Shown: piece by piece, positions 48,158-64,000 of the stretch
Layout: every line of letters starts with the position of its first letter
Numbering within the stretch: the first letter of the stretch is position 1
DNA from: a virus
Lineage: Duplodnaviria > Heunggongvirae > Uroviricota > Caudoviricetes
Strand: one strand, 5' to 3'
Length of the DNA: 64,000 nt
Virus record (IMG/VR): IMGVR_UViG_3300042934_000212
Notes under the pieces: generated by a model
Databases searched by the model: none
The model's input: only the letters and a program-made list of their open reading frames with translations
What the model was told of the DNA's origin: nothing
Translations under genes and position numbers: made by a program

Positions 48158-48241
48158 AATCTTTATATCCTATTCAATAGAGTAAGCCACCAGCATTGTG
48201 CCAGTGGCTTAGGGATTTGTCAAGTACTATTGTACTTTTAA

Positions 48242-48571
48242 TTAATGCTTATCCTTCTCCAGTTCGTAACGGAAGGATACCAGATCATCGTTCAGGTAGA
48301 ACGTAGTGTGACCAGGTTTAACATCAGCGTGACCATCAACTGACTGTTTGTAGTTTGACTCCAGCCATTCCATCTGGTCTTGCTGGTCTTCAGGGTCGGT
48401 AATCCCGCACGCCATCAGCACCATCATTACCGCCAGTTGTCTAGGGTTTTCAGTACCAACCAGGTTGATTCTAATGTCCAGTACGTTGAAGCCAAAACGG
48501 TTTACAGAAACATTAACGAACGGGGTAGATGTAGCCATGATGTAAATCTCCTGGGTAATGTTGGGAAGCAC
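48242..48571 (-). CDS. hypothetical protein
   Basis: 109-aa ORF (true start probably the internal MATSTPF). Confidence 0.4.
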   Translation of the reverse strand: MLPNITQEIYIMATSTPFVNVSVNRFGFNVLDIRINLVGTENPRQLAVMMVLMACGITDPEDQQDQMEWLESNYKQSVDGHADVKPGHTTFYLNDDLVSFRYELEKDKH

Positions 48572-48597
48572 TATTGCTTCCCGATGAATGTATAATA

Positions 48598-48864
48598 CTA
48601 CTTGTTAACTTCTGCTGCAAGTACTTTTAACTTATTTTTTAACTCTTGAACATTATGAGTAACAAGAATAGTACCGCTGTTAATATAACTGAGCTTATAC
48701 ATACCATCAGCATATAATCTAATGAAGTAAGATGGTTCTGCTGCATCTTCTTCAGTATCAATAGACCAGTACTCAATCTCTGTGTCTTCATCGTCCAGCG
48801 TGTCCATCATGTTACCCAGGGCAGATTCACCAAACAACTTCTTAACCAGCGTTGTTACTTTCAT
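48598..48864 (-). CDS. hypothetical acidic protein
   Basis: 88-aa ORF. Confidence 0.4.
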   Translation of the reverse strand: MKVTTLVKKLFGESALGNMMDTLDDEDTEIEYWSIDTEEDAAEPSYFIRLYADGMYKLSYINSGTILVTHNVQELKNKLKVLAAEVNK

Positions 48865-48968
48865 GTTCTTTACTCCGTCTCGTTTCGATGTAGTAATAAT
48901 AGTACTTTCTGAAGTTTAACGCAAGCCTTTTTTAAATTAAAAGTATAATTCTTTTCTTTAAAAAGTTG

Positions 48969-48997
48969 TTGACAGTCCACCAGCACCAGGGCATAAT
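48969..48997 (+). promoter_or_regulatory. consensus sigma70-type promoter on plus strand (TTGACA-N17-CATAAT)
   Basis: TTGACA at 48969-48974, 17-nt spacer, CATAAT at 48992-48997. Points rightward, antisense to all flanking genes, directly upstream of the 16-bp inverted repeat. Confidence 0.5.
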
Positions 48998-49025
48998 TAT
49001 CATATAGACAGCGAAATGTCTTTGA

Positions 49026-49094
49026 CCCATTGGGTGCGGAGCTATATCTATTAAGTACTAAATTTTCTACAGATAGATCTCCGCACCCAATGGG
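49026..49094. repeat. perfect 16-bp inverted repeat with 37-nt spacer (long hairpin / palindromic operator)
   Basis: Arm1 CCCATTGGGTGCGGAG (49026-49041) and arm2 CTCCGCACCCAATGGG (49079-49094). The spacer itself contains partial ATCTAT/ATAGAT symmetry. Confidence 0.6.
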
Positions 49095-49130
49095 ATGAAA
49101 GCGGCGGTATCTGCCAATGAAATAAGTATA

Positions 49131-49163
49131 GCAAAAAGGGCTGACCGAAGTCAACCCCTTTAT
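49131..49163 (-). terminator. UUCG-tetraloop intrinsic terminator (repeat family)
   Basis: Minus strand GGGGUUGAC-UUCG-GUCAGCCC followed by UUUUUGC; hairpin 49138-49158. Confidence 0.65.
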
Positions 49164-49441
49164 TAAATTCTTTTTTGTGATATGGTTTAGGCTTTCCAGC
49201 TTACCATTTTATCAGACTGCCCTTTGTTGTAGGCGTCTAACAGTTCCTTGCGTTGCCAACTGTCCAGGCCGTTGAATAGTGCTTTGTTATCGGCTGATAG
49301 TACTTGACTATTGCTACCGAAGTTATACCATACTTGTTTGAGTGAATCTAGATCAACGTGGATCATATTTTGGATTCCTACATAACGATTAAAAAGATTA
49401 TATATTACTTGTTGACTTTAGTCAAACTATTTTATTAGTAC

Positions 49442-49654
49442 TTACTGCATTACTTTTGGTGTAACTTTGGTGGCGGGTTTCAGCCAGGTTTCTTGTTCGT
49501 CATTGACGCCGAAGAGATAGGCTTTCTTTAGTTCTGCTTGAATGTGTGAAGGAAGGGAATCGAATAATGCTTTATCTTCCCCGATAATTGGATTGCCTGC
49601 AACAGCTTGCTTGTACCAACGAATTTTTAGGGCTTCTACTTGACTGTTTTGCAT
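49442..49654 (-). CDS. small hypothetical protein
   Basis: 70-aa ORF. Confidence 0.35.
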   Translation of the reverse strand: MQNSQVEALKIRWYKQAVAGNPIIGEDKALFDSLPSHIQAELKKAYLFGVNDEQETWLKPATKVTPKVMQ

Positions 49655-49832
49655 TAGTGCTCTACACCTTTTGTTGTTTTCTTAAGGCTTATATTATCGG
49701 ATTCGTCTTAATCTGTCAACCGCCTTGACTAAATTAATTTTTGGTACTAGCGGTGCGATTTATCTTGACATAAAAAAAGAGGTTGACAAATTTGCCAACC
49801 TCATATATTACTAATCTAAAACGCGTAATAGG

Positions 49833-50156
49833 TTAAATGCTGTATGCTTCTACATGCTGTTGCGTAATCGCATTGCGTTGTACTGCATCCAATTTATTAA
49901 ACGCTGGCGATCCGTAAGCAGGTTCGATCTGTGTCCAGTTTTCCAGGTTAATCGCTTGACCGTATGCGATAGCCTGAAGCATACGCAAGATCCGGCGATT
50001 CTGAACATCACGAACTTCACGATCCGTTTGTGTCTCATTGGTTAACAATGATGAATCCAGTTTGAAGCGGCGACCGTTGAAATCCTGTCCAGCGATCACA
50101 TATTCCGTAATGTTATTCTTTCCTGGCGACGTCATTACAAACAAATTCATTTTCAT
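49833..50156 (-). CDS. hypothetical protein (GC-rich, host-like composition)
   Basis: 107 aa; AGGAGG SD. Preceded by TTGACA-N17-CATACT on minus strand inside a degenerate terminator-repeat copy (50196-50228). Confidence 0.45.
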   Translation of the reverse strand: MKMNLFVMTSPGKNNITEYVIAGQDFNGRRFKLDSSLLTNETQTDREVRDVQNRRILRMLQAIAYGQAINLENWTQIEPAYGSPAFNKLDAVQRNAITQQHVEAYSI

Positions 50157-50235
50157 GTAACTATCCTCCTAAAGTTCACAGTTATTAGTATGCTTTAGGG
50201 GAAGACGATTGTCAACCCCTTTTAGCTTTTTATTT

Positions 50236-62345: not shown

Positions 62346-62346
62346 A

Positions 62347-62604
62347 TTATTTCCAATCTGCCGGATCTTCTTCGCAGACATAAACAACATCATCATTCAC
62401 CAGGTTAGCGGCTAACTCAACATCACCGCGTAACTCGTTTGTTTCGATAGTGATTGACGACATAGAAACATCGTGATTCTTTTCGTCATTGTAAAGCCTG
62501 GCCGGATCTGCTGCCAGTACTTTAACACTACCAGACAGAACCATCATATCCAGTACAGCTAACATCGTTGCCGCTGATTTGGTATACAGAGTTACAATAT
62601 TCAT
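62347..62604 (-). CDS. small hypothetical protein
   Basis: ATG at 62604-62602 verified (MNIVTLYT). Confidence 0.4.
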   Translation of the reverse strand: MNIVTLYTKSAATMLAVLDMMVLSGSVKVLAADPARLYNDEKNHDVSMSSITIETNELRGDVELAANLVNDDVVYVCEEDPADWK

Positions 62605-62642
62605 AAAGCCTCTCAATTAAAATTAACTACCGGATATAACTA

Positions 62643-62670
62643 ATTATAAAGTACTCGCAGAATTAAGCAA
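62643..62670 (-). promoter_or_regulatory. early sigma70-like promoter in short repeat (TTGCTT-N16-TATAAT)
   Basis: -10 = rc of 62643-62648; -35 = rc of 62665-62670. Confidence 0.4.
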
Positions 62671-62687
62671 GTACTTTTGATAATTAA

Positions 62688-62894
62688 TTATACTAATTCG
62701 ATTTCAGTAATGCTACCATCTGCCGAAATAACCTGAATTGTTTTACCGGCATCTTTTGCATTTTGAAAATATTCAAGTACTTTATATGCCTTTTGTGTAA
62801 CATCACCATAAGAGCTTGAATCGGTTTTTTGTTTCAACTCACACAAACGAGCAAAGGATTTCTCTGTAATATCGATCTGAATACGCTTTGGCAT
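62688..62894 (-). CDS. small hypothetical protein
   Basis: 68-aa ORF. Confidence 0.35.
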   Translation of the reverse strand: MPKRIQIDITEKSFARLCELKQKTDSSSYGDVTQKAYKVLEYFQNAKDAGKTIQVISADGSITEIELV

Positions 62895-62933
62895 GTTATC
62901 CTCTCAATTAAAATTAACTACCGGATATAACTA

Positions 62934-62961
62934 ATTATAAAGTACTCGCCGGGTAATGCAA
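62934..62961 (-). promoter_or_regulatory. early sigma70-like promoter in short repeat (TTGCAT-N16-TATAAT)
   Basis: -10 = rc of 62934-62939; -35 = rc of 62956-62961. Confidence 0.45.
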
Positions 62962-62978
62962 GTACTTTTGATAATTAA

Positions 62979-63434
62979 TTATAGATACTTTTCAGGGATA
63001 GAATCTTGCTGAATGATTTGCTTTTCAGCCGCAAGTTCTGTTACAAAATCTTTGAGCTTTTTAAAGTACTTGTCATAACCCGCGATGATCTTTGCCGTAT
63101 CGCCTTTAATCTTGCGTACTGATACTTTGCGGCTTTCGGCGTACATGTGCGGCTTCTCAGTAATGCAAGTAACCCACACGCCGTCAAATTCAACTTCCAG
63201 ATCCTGGAGTTCAACTTCTGAATCATTAAACTTGATTCCTTTGTGAATGTATGAACGAAACGTAATAGGATCATTGGCTCTGATTTTTGCGGAAACATCC
63301 TCAATATCACCAATCAAACCGCAGAAGATTGCAACACCGCCGCCTAGTGCTAGTGGGCTGATTCGAATACTTCCATTAGGAAAGTACTTGTGAAACGCGG
63401 TAGTTACTGCTGCCTGGAGTTCGTTAGCTGTCAT
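62979..63434 (-). CDS. hypothetical protein
   Basis: Start trimmed to the internal ATG (MTANELQAAV). Possible 1-nt uncertainty in my coordinate count here. Confidence 0.4.
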   Translation of the reverse strand: MTANELQAAVTTAFHKYFPNGSIRISPLALGGGVAIFCGLIGDIEDVSAKIRANDPITFRSYIHKGIKFNDSEVELQDLEVEFDGVWVTCITEKPHMYAESRKVSVRKIKGDTAKIIAGYDKYFKKLKDFVTELAAEKQIIQQDSIPEKYL

Positions 63435-63470
63435 GTTATGTTCTCTCAATTAAAAAGTTACTGTATAACT

Positions 63471-63498
63471 AATTATAAAGTACTCGCAGAATTAAGCA
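63471..63498 (-). promoter_or_regulatory. early sigma70-like promoter in short repeat (TTGCTT-N16-TATAAT)
   Basis: -10 = rc of 63471-63476; -35 = rc of 63493-63498. Confidence 0.4.
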
Positions 63499-63519
63499 AG
63501 TACTTTTGATAATTAATTA

Positions 63520-63954
63520 TTAAACCGTACCCGCCAGGATCTCGCCTACGCGATCAAGTTCAAAGCGGTCAACAAAGTTCCCTTTGTCAGTTTTCATCCG
63601 GCACATATACCAGGCATCACCTTCAAACACATAGCGAATAATGTTTTTGTTTGCGTGAAGAAACATAAACCATGAATCAGTAGTTTGTGGCTCTGTGCCA
63701 GTTTCACCACGATCACGCCCATAAGCTACAGTGCAACCGTCAACGCGTCGTGCGTAAGTGTGACCGTCTGGACACTCAATTGATTTATCCAGTACTGACA
63801 GATCACCCAGGGCGATTAATGCTTTTGCACGTTCTGCATCGTTGTAATGCTCTACCAACATGCGGCCAGCGTGACCGATATAGCCATCATAGTTTACAGA
63901 TGACCATGTAACTTTTTCGCCGTCTTTGATTGCAATGATTGCTGGAGTACCCAT
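63520..63954 (-). CDS. hypothetical protein
   Basis: 144-aa ORF followed by the conserved TTAATTGAGAGGAT RBS of the next gene. Confidence 0.4.
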   Translation of the reverse strand: MGTPAIIAIKDGEKVTWSSVNYDGYIGHAGRMLVEHYNDAERAKALIALGDLSVLDKSIECPDGHTYARRVDGCTVAYGRDRGETGTEPQTTDSWFMFLHANKNIIRYVFEGDAWYMCRMKTDKGNFVDRFELDRVGEILAGTV

Positions 63955-64000
63955 TTTTAAATCCTCTCAATTAAAAGTAACATCGTCTCGTTTCGATATA

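Follow-up and report, generated by a model that had tools for sequence, protein, structure and literature searches.

The window analyzed here is the whole 64,000-nucleotide stretch of DNA of the IMG/VR virus record IMGVR_UViG_3300042934_000212 (Caudoviricetes), in which nearly all genes lie on the minus strand. A first-pass annotation had described positions 48200-64000 as a hyperplastic region assembled from repeated promoter, stem-loop and terminator cassettes, similar to the promoter-early stem-loop (PeSL) elements of T4-type phages. The question raised by this locus is whether the repeats are only regulatory sequences between small genes, or whether they also provide the homology by which those genes are gained, lost and moved. 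The comparisons described below make it quite likely that the segment from about 47.8 to 64 kb, and beyond, forms an early hyperplastic region of the PeSL type in a Rak2-like jumbo phage, with gene turnover bounded by the cassettes.

Over positions 1-22 kb the window was ~78% identical to Pectobacterium phage CBB and Cronobacter phage GAP32; judged by this similarity, the source is a Mimasvirus-like (CBB/GAP32, "Rak2-like") jumbo myovirus, not a T4-type phage. The INPHARED phage collection held no record above ~78% identity to the window, while IMG/VR contained a 355-kb contig 96% identical to it, and the window is probably an undescribed species of the Rak2-like jumbo-phage group. The segment 48.2-64 kb was syntenic with the first ~20 kb of CBB, GAP32, Serratia phage BF and others. 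This synteny was recovered by blastn and IMG/VR pattern scans, not by megablast, which returned from INPHARED only 45-60-bp matches to 48-64 kb, all of them a terminator/promoter composite in 121Q-like phages. In CBB, positions 1-22,456, annotated 'redundant repeat', form a 22,456-bp long direct terminal repeat (PMC5259590) that is syntenic with window 48-64 kb, and its boundary mapped to approximately window position 47,790, inside a 206-nt intergenic region (~47751-47956). The cassette region may therefore be the terminal repeat of this phage. The hyperplastic region started near 47.8-48.2 kb and extended beyond the end of the window, so that the repeats were found where they had been placed but were not confined to the limits first given to them. 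The terminal repeat of the related phage PA5oct has 105 genes, many of them transcribed at high levels early, and two abundant noncoding RNAs map there (PMC7318152); by comparison with relatives, the genes of the present region would also be expressed early. No tRNA genes were found in the window (ARAGORN), and no Rfam 15 family matched near its gathering score in 47-64 kb.

Anatomy of the cassettes

In the region, 39 open reading frames (ORFs) were called on the minus strand with lengths of 25-302 amino acids (aa), mostly 53-151 aa (median ~88 aa), in agreement with the small genes that had been noted between cassettes, and cassettes occupied almost all of the intergenic DNA. The repeats were clearly not random. 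A 24-mer, GTAACTACATTATAAAGTACTCGC, had 6 matches at ≤3 mismatches compared with 0 in 100 shuffles, and a repeat search returned families of 11, 10, 7 and 6 copies in 52-64 kb. The short unit, designated class A, had a fixed order that began with the upstream stop codon, followed by AACATTAYC, AAAAGTACTTGCA, N8-9, GCGAGTACTT-TATAAT, GTAGTTACTG.., TTTTAATTGAGAGG, N4-8 and ATG. The first-pass annotation had named repeats that align no further than the generic hexamers as an outcome that would count against it; instead, the conservation extended over ~85 nt, from the upstream stop codon through the Shine-Dalgarno (SD) sequence and ATG, with the repeat unit itself beginning at the stop codon and ending 5 nt short of the ATG. 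Cassettes were 85-96% identical over 55-90 nt, all in the same orientation, and adjacent copies were up to 96% identical over 89 nt.

The minus-strand promoter of the short unit read TTGCAT, as had been reported, or TTGCAC, followed by N16-17 and TATAAT with an A-tract upstream, and a regular expression for the -35 to -10 core found 18 copies. A profile constructed from 15 promoter cores gave 19 minus-strand matches, all between 52.2 and 63.5 kb, and 0 in 1-48 kb. Relatives were found by an IMG/VR pattern scan with the cassette core. Relative 1 (IMGVR_UViG_3300031417_000002) was 95.5-96.6% identical over window 50451-64000, and relative 2 (IMGVR_UViG_3300042923_000569) was 76-92% (roughly 85%) identical over window 48914-64000. 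The profile matched 20 times in relative 1, 18 times in relative 2, 14 times in CBB, 8 times in GAP32 and 9 times in L003.

The short promoter is itself a palindrome of ~18 bp around two AAGTACTT boxes 20 bp apart; the AGTACT hexamer constitutes both boxes. The core, AAAGTACTTGC / GCGAGTACTTT, is an 11-bp inverted repeat with almost no variation among 33 distinct copies, which came from six genomes. A single pair changed from AU to UA in 5 of the 33 copies, and a U.G wobble on the coding strand was retained in 31 of them. An outer stem pairs the -10 region with the sequence just 3' of the upstream stop codon; one cassette type has it as ACATTAT/ATAATGT, another as TAATTAT/ATAATTA. This stem was deduced from single-sequence folds and from the two sequence types compared by eye, as a symmetric count of pairs was foiled by a 2-nt bulge. 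As coding-strand RNA the palindrome folded at -18 to -19 kcal/mol (z ~-6.5), compared with -13 to -15 kcal/mol on the opposite strand. The palindrome, together with the -35 box in the terminator stem and the structured motif on both strands described below, goes beyond the earlier description of these repeats.

The long unit was present in three near-identical copies (49.08-49.17, 51.53-51.62 and 52.73-52.82 kb) and in diverged copies at 53.2, 59.5 and 62.3 kb. A U-tract follows each of six GGGGTTGAC-loop-GTCAGCCC hairpins, which have stems of 12-14 bp, UUCG-type loops and a terminal UUUU. The coding-strand hairpins had energies of -16 to -20 kcal/mol, whereas the other strand reached only -8 to -11 kcal/mol, a strand asymmetry that results from G.U pairs, and are therefore predicted to be coding-strand terminators; a GC-rich hairpin with a U-tract on the transcribed strand is the usual sequence signature of intrinsic termination. 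Each terminator stem contains TTGAC, with TATACT, TATAAT or TATAGT 17-18 nt later. The long cassette is thus a putative terminator with a consensus sigma-70 promoter built in, the -35 box lying inside the stem. After the terminator and promoter come the 'boxes' of the first-pass annotation and an AT-rich tract, and then a second promoter (AAGTACTTGCAC-N16-TATACT type) and a ATATCGAAAC-containing leader, so that two different promoter types are arranged in tandem. The terminator-like hairpins ascribed to the long unit were recovered, but its two 'boxes' are not loose boxes; they are parts of a composite of promoter, hairpin and 16-mer, designated motif M and considered in its own section.

The terminator with the embedded promoter (AAAGGGTTGACTTCGGTCAGCCCTTTTTGCTATAAT) was 90-96% conserved in L107 (phage 121Q, 112.4-112.8 kb) and in ~45 other jumbo-phage records. 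The composite, ~95% conserved in the 121Q-like phages, spans genera such as Asteriusvirus and Eneladusvirus, among others, even though the DNA around it cannot be aligned. In phage 121Q it sits directly 5' of a gene, which it is predicted to drive.

By the published definition, a PeSL consists of a stop codon, an AT-rich tract, a sigma-70-like promoter, a stem-loop with G-T pairs between or overlapping the -35 and -10 boxes, an SD sequence and an ATG, and such elements cluster within a small-ORF hyperplastic region (PMC2839356). Placement of the G-T-containing stem-loop between or over the two boxes characterizes the commonest subclass (Arbiol et al., PMC2839356), and PeSLs have been described for the T4-like phages RB49/phi1, T4/PST and KVP40/nt-1 (PMC2839356, PMC4122927). 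The anatomy of the present cassettes agrees with this definition, as had been suggested. Sigma-70-like boxes ~17 nt apart, preceded by an AT-rich tract, occurred in the 18 short copies and as TTGACN-N17-18-TATACT in the terminator units. The predicted stem-loops were of both PeSL kinds, the palindrome extending from -35 to -10 and the upstream terminator stems with their U-tracts, and both contained G-T pairs. The elements reached from the upstream stop codon to the downstream SD sequence and start codon, all 19 profile matches fell in 52-64 kb, and 18 of the 20 largest ORFs had no Pfam family. Insertions, deletions, replacements and ORF displacements occurred at the elements among close relatives.

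There were also differences. The cassettes belong to a Rak2-like jumbo phage and not to T4-like myoviruses, which is a taxonomic limit of the description of PeSLs and not a mechanistic one, and their region corresponds to what is in CBB a long terminal repeat. In place of the polyG/polyC stem there is an AT-rich palindrome, built on AAGTACTT, that covers the entire promoter, and the terminator-type units have motif M and a second promoter in addition. Finally, mini-circles and demonstrated promoter and terminator activity are part of the PeSL description, whereas the present cassettes are known from their sequence.

Gene turnover at the cassettes

The annotation would also have been weakened if repeat boundaries were unrelated to the presence or absence of genes. 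Comparison with relative 1 revealed four indels, and all of their junctions were in cassette parts. In the first, relative 1 lacked the segment 62693-62899, a 68-aa ORF plus one cassette, and the junction overlapped by 87 bp. The missing ORF is flanked in the window by cassettes 62895..62978 and 62605..62687, which constitute an 84-bp direct repeat of 94% identity. The surviving cassette in relative 1 was chimeric, its 5' half resembling one flanking copy and its 3' end the other; it combined the left window copy's spacer (GCATTACCYGG) with the right copy's SD end, the product that would be expected of recombination between the two flanking 84-bp repeats. In the second indel (~62345-62352), relative 1 had an extra 431-bp unit of a cassette and two ORFs between the 85-aa ORF and the terminator. 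The third (54627-54777) comprised a promoter and a 25-aa ORF remnant absent from relative 1; in relative 2, the promoter of this unit (54708..54777) is predicted to drive a 110-aa ORF. In the fourth (56422-56708), an 85-aa ORF within an operon was replaced by 63 bp, with junctions at a conserved SD module. The slot between the 151-aa and 133-aa ORFs was empty in relative 2, whereas the window had 2 ORFs there and relative 1 had 3.

In 4 of 11 orthologous short cassettes, window and relative 1 differed wholly over 8-9 nt of spacer while the flanks were identical, and each swapped spacer was that of another cassette, for example TTAATTCT, ATTACCTG or TTATTACT, a pattern that suggests short-patch exchange between cassettes. 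More distant genomes showed movement of whole units. Gene-order maps had a conserved backbone, with promoter+ORF units inserted at differing places in GAP32 and CBB; the 68-aa ORF (62688-62894) with its cassette sits between other genes in both phages, and a 91-aa ORF was absent from GAP32, CBB and relative 2 but was 67% identical in the Serratia BF group. Homologues of the 68-aa ORF, 39% identical, were also found in Ea35-70-like Erwinia jumbo phages, an unrelated lineage, which suggests a shared pool of small early genes.

The cargo of the variable units had been described as host-like, a claim that fared poorly. Pfam domains were detected in only 2 of the 20 largest ORFs, DUF932 and SPFH/Band 7, and both genes belong to the backbone present in all relatives, so host-like cargo is not a feature of the variable units. 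The PHROG matches were mostly to phage families of unknown function, with one virion protein.

These observations suggest how the region might operate. Nearly every small gene has a copy of a standard expression cassette to itself. The short form would be a strong sigma-70-type promoter (UP-like A-tract, -35 TTGCAT, 16-17-nt spacer, -10 TATAAT) followed by a leader and SD sequence. The long form would begin with a coding-strand intrinsic terminator that holds the -35 box of a TTGACT-N18-TATACT promoter, and would continue with the M leader (a 5' hairpin and CCCAYNGGGTGCGGAG) and a second promoter. A gene dropped between two cassettes would then be expressed early and insulated from its neighbours. 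Homologous recombination or short-patch conversion between like-oriented cassettes, possibly by way of circular intermediates, could delete, insert, replace or relocate promoter+ORF units, the same route that was proposed for the PeSL elements of T4-like phages. Mobility of the cassettes in this sense is suggested by the comparative data.

A rival explanation is that the repeats are only regulatory and are kept alike by purifying selection, while turnover proceeds by ordinary illegitimate or general recombination and is cassette-bound only by tight packing. Several observations agree with this explanation and weigh against cassette-directed turnover, 1) nearly all of the intergenic DNA is cassette, so that gene-sized indels fall at cassettes almost by default, 2) the junction homology at two indels was only 10-16 bp and A/T-rich, and 3) the indel at 56422-56708 runs from one ribosome-binding site to another inside an operon. 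Specific evidence for recombination inside cassettes comes only from the chimeric junction and the spacer swaps. The purely regulatory account is considered improbable. Positions with no obvious regulatory role, such as the 8-nt spacer and details of the leader, were identical between neighbouring non-orthologous cassettes and differed between orthologues in genomes 96% identical. Moreover, the 87-bp junction overlap left a chimeric cassette, and neighbouring cassettes 96% identical to each other flank ORFs that belong to unrelated BLASTP families.

Other points also count against the cassette-bound early region as proposed. The terminal-repeat status assigned to this genome is drawn from synteny with CBB. 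A generic sigma-70 scan of the region found 65 sites compared with 56 expected, and a generic terminator scan found 12 compared with 11.7 expected, no enrichment in either case, although such scanners miss the cassette family because the -35 TTGCAT scores only 4/6. The conserved AGTACT boxes are not accounted for by sigma-70 contacts, and since CBB encodes its own sigma-70-family protein, the cassette promoters may be read or regulated by another factor.

That last point can be developed into a distinct proposal, in which the AAGTACTTGCA..GAGTACTT-TATAAT cassettes are read by a phage sigma-70-family factor or switched by a dimeric AGTACT-binding protein, and the terminator TTGACA/TATACT promoters are the true immediate-early set. 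It would alter who reads the cassettes, not their role in shuffling. The invariant non-canonical sequence in the spacer and 5' of the -35 box, the two AAGTACTT palindromes 20 bp apart, the tandem promoter types of the long cassettes and the presence of a helix-turn-helix regulator in addition to the sigma factor in CBB are all in keeping with it, as is the 8-fold enrichment of AGTACT throughout the window and in all codon phases. Yet host sigma-70 could accept both the -35 and the -10 box and the distance between them, the promoters have an UP-like A-tract, and the PeSL promoters of KVP40/nt-1 are similarly relaxed at -35 (TTGYVH; PMC4122927). No candidate binding protein was identified in this analysis, and the proposal is possible but rather doubtful.

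The abundance of the hexamer was recorded separately. AGTACT occurred at 178 sites in window 1-64000, ~1 per 360 bp, compared with ~21.5 expected (8.3-fold), and AAGTACTT was enriched 26-fold. Inside genes there were 128 sites, which fell in all three codon phases, compared with 39 +/- 5 once synonymous codons had been shuffled. In the repeat regions of GAP32 (1-27 kb) and CBB (1-24 kb) the enrichment was 18-19-fold. The contrast palindromes GGTACC, CGTACG and GAGTACTC occurred 0, 0 and 2 times in the window. The 2 copies of GAGTACTC against 55 of AAGTACTT ruled out SlmA-binding sites as an identity for the boxes, and periodic spacing was also rejected, as sites outside the cassettes were roughly randomly spaced.

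The repeated palindromic units that flank single ORFs, and their variable copy number among relatives, also recall autonomous or site-specific mobile elements, either miniature inverted-repeat or insertion-sequence-like, or integron-attC-like, moved by a dedicated transposase or integrase. As in integron gene cassettes, single ORFs are bounded by imperfect palindromes and one slot has variable content. However, all copies had one orientation and an exact stop-to-ATG placement, there were no target-site duplications at the junctions, and a domain scan of the 20 largest ORFs gave neither an integrase nor a transposase. Integron cassettes are promoterless, end in attC and depend on a tyrosine integrase, whereas each unit here has its own promoter and SD sequence, and the junctions fall within long homologous repeats and not at a site-specific crossover point. 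Movement by a dedicated enzyme is accordingly very improbable.

In phage T5, the earliest genes lie in a long direct terminal repeat, the pre-early region, for which we know of no reported cassette-level repeat family. The cassette region resembles this arrangement and the direct terminal repeat of PA5oct (PMC7318152) in having dense small genes with strong host-type promoters inside a terminal repeat, here assigned by synteny; it differs from PA5oct in its cassette-level repeat family, none having been reported for that phage in the literature searched. The same regions of CBB and GAP32 have been annotated for RpoD-like promoters (PMC5259590; GenBank). The CBB paper lists 18, of which only 3 are in the terminal repeat (PMC5259590); the CBB and GAP32 annotations include some of the terminator-embedded promoters, for example Porf_41 AAAAAGGAGTTGACAACAGTTGGCTCCTTTGCTATACT, but AGTACTTGC is not in the supplement of the CBB paper, and the palindromic family, motif M and shuffling are not described in those annotations. 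The one paper found to mention both PeSLs and 'jumbo' goes no further than citing the 2014 PeSL study. Within the searched literature, the palindromic family, motif M and cassette shuffling appear to be new for the Rak2-like clade.

PeSL-type shuffling had previously been described only for T4-like phages, and the same logic would now apply to a different and much larger phage lineage. The three-genome slot with 0, 2 or 3 ORFs suggests a general route by which large lytic phages could trial small early genes, with host-takeover and anti-defence genes as candidates. The cassette profile could serve to mark the earliest transcription units in poorly annotated Rak2-like genomes, and the variable promoter+ORF units provide a list for functional screening.

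Motif M

The motif M set was assembled from every CCCAYNGGGTGC site in the window and its relatives. The motif consists of a sigma-70 consensus promoter, ~7 nt, a hairpin of 3-4 bp, 3-5 nt and CCCAYNGGGTGCGGAG, and the hairpin loops are purine-rich (GCGAAA, GAGAAA, AGAACAA or AGATAAA). A sigma-70 consensus promoter was located at a fixed distance 5' of the CCCAYNGGGTGC site, on either strand, in 47 of the 48 collected copies. A covariance model placed 7 copies in the window, none of them in 1-48 kb. Five are on the minus strand in long cassettes or the palindromic module described next (49077-49113, 51525-51563, 52727-52765, 59486-59525 and 62260-62298), and two are on the plus strand (49005-49043 and 57362-57400). 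The model also found 13 copies in GAP32 1-27 kb, 11 in CBB 1-24 kb, and others in Serratia phage BF and Klebsiella phage RaK2. The set comprised 56 copies (54 distinct) at 12 loci. Each genome has 7-13 copies, which lie on both strands; they often form 69-nt convergent palindromes, and in some a Chi octamer is present in the promoter spacer.

In the 'full' modules (e.g. window 48969-49186), M is present on both strands as a palindrome of fixed length, 69 nt, flanked by convergent promoters. The arms of this palindrome had compensatory ATT/AAT, ATA/TAT and ACA/TGT changes. The two best sigma-70 matches in the region were the plus-strand promoters at 48969 and 57326, and the position of the plus-strand M copy at 57.4 kb was conserved in relative 2, GAP32 and CBB.

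These features suggested that motif M, with its promoter, 4-bp hairpin with a GNGAAA-type loop and CCCAYNGGGTGCGGAG, may be a functional RNA family, acting as a small or antisense RNA, a processing or stability leader at the 5' end, or a nut-like signal, and not filler of the cassette. In addition to the promoter at a fixed upstream distance, all 4 hairpin pairs had compensatory changes among the 54 distinct copies, and the covariation score was 0.362 compared with 0.146 +/- 0.015 in shuffles (0/500 as high) and ≤0.104 for slid partners. A G.U/A-U pair occurred only on the motif's own strand, the arms changed in a compensatory manner at constant palindrome length, and the terminal repeat of PA5oct has abundant noncoding RNAs (PMC7318152). 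Weighed against an RNA role, no Rfam family matched motif M, and the antisense copies had few terminators by simple search; they would lack an efficient one because the shared hairpin is weak on that strand, so that the picture of discrete small RNAs is not secure. The covariation of the arms could also stem from inverted duplication and conversion and not from selection for pairing, and M might instead act at the DNA level, for example as a recombination site or in an origin R-loop. On balance, an RNA function is given close to, though slightly less than, an even chance. Small RNA, antisense RNA or a 5' processing/stability leader is ranked first among the roles of M, and a DNA-level role (recombination site, R-loop origin) second.

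Lambdoid nut sites and rrn antitermination leaders place a promoter-proximal hairpin beside a conserved linear box, and work with an N-like protein and boxA to let transcription pass the terminators downstream. Motif M likewise combines a promoter-proximal short hairpin, a purine-rich GNRA-like loop, a covarying stem and an adjoining conserved linear box. Unlike nut sites, M has no boxA-like sequence and is found on both strands and as palindromes, and no N-like protein was identified. A nut-like antiterminator role seems unlikely, since the M promoter overlaps the preceding terminator and the antisense copies encounter a hairpin within ~50-170 nt, which argues against read-through.

A broader and more tentative proposal is that motif M is an undescribed promoter-proximal structured RNA family confined to the early terminal-repeat region of Rak2-like phages, where it might act as small or antisense RNAs or as a signal for early-transcript processing or cassette recombination, together with a genome-wide AGTACT mark read by a DNA-binding factor; we regard this as conceivable, with the odds somewhat against it. 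Motif M and the genome-wide AGTACT palindrome in any event point to RNA- or DNA-binding factors yet to be found.

Two other candidates were rejected. A 165-nt small RNA with its own terminator was unsupported for the full modules, the shared hairpin being weak on the antisense strand. A 32-aa ORF inside the palindromic modules (family g30) was judged not to be coding; it had no SD sequence, and its 'conservation' was the nucleotide motif itself.

Individual cassettes and minor features

The features below are on the minus strand unless stated and are given from the window end leftward. One more cassette is truncated by the end of the window but complete in relative 2; its leader and SD sequence (TATATCGAAAC..TTTTAATTGAGAGG) occupy 63955..64000, 5' of ORF 63520-63954. 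Class A copies with palindromic promoter, leader and SD sequence follow at 63435..63519 (profile score 40; 5' of the 151-aa ORF 62979-63434), 62895..62978 (5' of the 68-aa ORF 62688-62894) and 62605..62687 (5' of the 85-aa ORF 62347-62604). The long cassette 62140..62346, 5' of ORF 61738-62139, is composed of a putative terminator (62312-62343), the embedded promoter TTGACG-N18-TATAGT (62304-62333), motif M (62260-62298), a second promoter AAGTACTTGCAC..TATAAT (62188-62221) and then a leader and SD sequence.

A class A variant with ATAGTACT..AGTACTAT, a compensatory change, is located at 61648..61737 (5' of ORF 61351-61647), and a degenerate copy at 61271..61350 (5' of ORF 60878-61270). Two high-scoring neighbours, 60791..60877 (score 45; 5' of ORF 60446-60790) and 60357..60445 (score 47; 5' of ORF 60081-60356), were 96% identical over 89 nt, and the RNA palindrome of the latter folded at -19.2 kcal/mol (z -6.5). 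The class A copy 59999..60080 (score 47) precedes the 141-aa ORF 59573-59998. This ORF has a 45-aa cysteine-rich N-terminal extension (MRIDYCKECGERC..) that is missing in the relative 2 orthologue, and the PHROG match covers only residues 46-139, so that a domain was apparently gained or lost at the cassette junction.

The long cassette 59382..59572, 5' of ORF 59112-59381, has a putative terminator at 59539-59569, an embedded TTGACG-N17-TATACT at 59531-59559, a degenerate motif M at 59486-59525 and a second promoter at 59414-59447. Class A copies then occur at 59035..59111 (score 42; 5' of the 53-aa ORF 58873-59034), 58798..58872 (a TTGT..GCAAG variant; 5' of ORF 58477-58797), 58110..58176 (degenerate, score 16; 5' of ORF 57870-58109) and 57798..57869 (5' of the 36-aa ORF 57687-57797), the last with a spacer wholly unlike that of its relative 1 orthologue. 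The composite intergenic module 57223..57470, 5' of ORF 57001-57222, has an AGTACT inverted repeat as a terminator-like hairpin (57431-57461) and a second-type promoter (57254-57290), and on the plus strand the promoter TTGACA-N17-CATAAT (57326-57354) and motif M (57362-57400).

Further left, the unit 55225..55369 combines a candidate terminator (~55335-55366, -15.5 kcal/mol) with the promoter AAGTACTTGCAT-N17-TATTAT (55271-55305), 5' of ORF 54778-55224. The class A variant 54708..54777 would drive the 25-aa ORF remnant 54630-54707, and the promoter cassette 54544..54629 (AAAAAGTACTTGCATC..TATAAT) is 5' of ORF 54100-54543. Directly 5' of ORF 52815-53153, the unit 53154..53221 has a putative terminator (53189-53219) with an embedded TTGACG-N18-TATAAT (53181-53210). 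The long cassette 52627..52814, 5' of ORF 52402-52626, contains a putative terminator (52780-52808), an embedded TTGACT-N18-TATACT (52772-52801), motif M (52727-52765) and a second promoter (52657-52690). The promoter cassette 52197..52283 (AAAGTACTTGCAAG..TATAAT, score 31) is 5' of the 190-aa ORF 51624-52196. In the long cassette 51408..51623, 5' of ORF 51210-51407, the predicted terminator (51578-51607) had an energy of -19.7 kcal/mol on the minus strand compared with -9.9 kcal/mol on the plus strand; the embedded TTGACT-N18-TATACT is at 51570-51599, motif M at 51525-51563 and the second promoter at ~51442-51475. The intergenic regions 58432-58476 and 54056-54099 were without a cassette promoter and had GC-rich hairpins, GAGGGGGATTATCAATCCCCC and AAGGGGCTTGACAAGCCCCTT, respectively, the latter again with TTGACA in loop and stem.

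Two terminator/promoter intergenic units in 49367..49832 flank the ORFs 49442-49654 and 49187-49366. The first has a putative terminator (49779-49802) and the promoter TTGACA-N17-TAATAT (49691-49719), and in the second a small hairpin covers the -35 box of TTGACT-N17-TATAAT (49397-49425). The two ORFs (70 aa and 59 aa) are adjacent paralogues; GAP32 and CBB also carry the pair, plus a duplicated 112-115-aa neighbour. The full palindromic module 48865..49186, 5' of ORF 48598-48864, has on the minus strand a putative terminator (49133-49161), the embedded promoter (49125-49154), motif M (49077-49113) and a second promoter (~48895-48930). Its 69-nt palindrome is at 49026-49094, and the plus strand carries motif M (49005-49043) and the promoter TTGACA-N17-CATAAT (48969-48997).

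A Chi site lies inside the spacer of this plus-strand promoter and at the same place in several relatives' copies. The E. coli Chi octamer, GCTGGTGG, occurred 15 times in the window compared with 0.5 expected, 4 times on the plus strand (7350, 24642, 35986 and 53487) and 11 times on the minus, coding strand (18792, 27550, 30448, 32955, 48187, 48977, 50289, 51272, 53952, 56157 and 60469). In 48-64 kb, 7 of 8 sites were on the minus strand.

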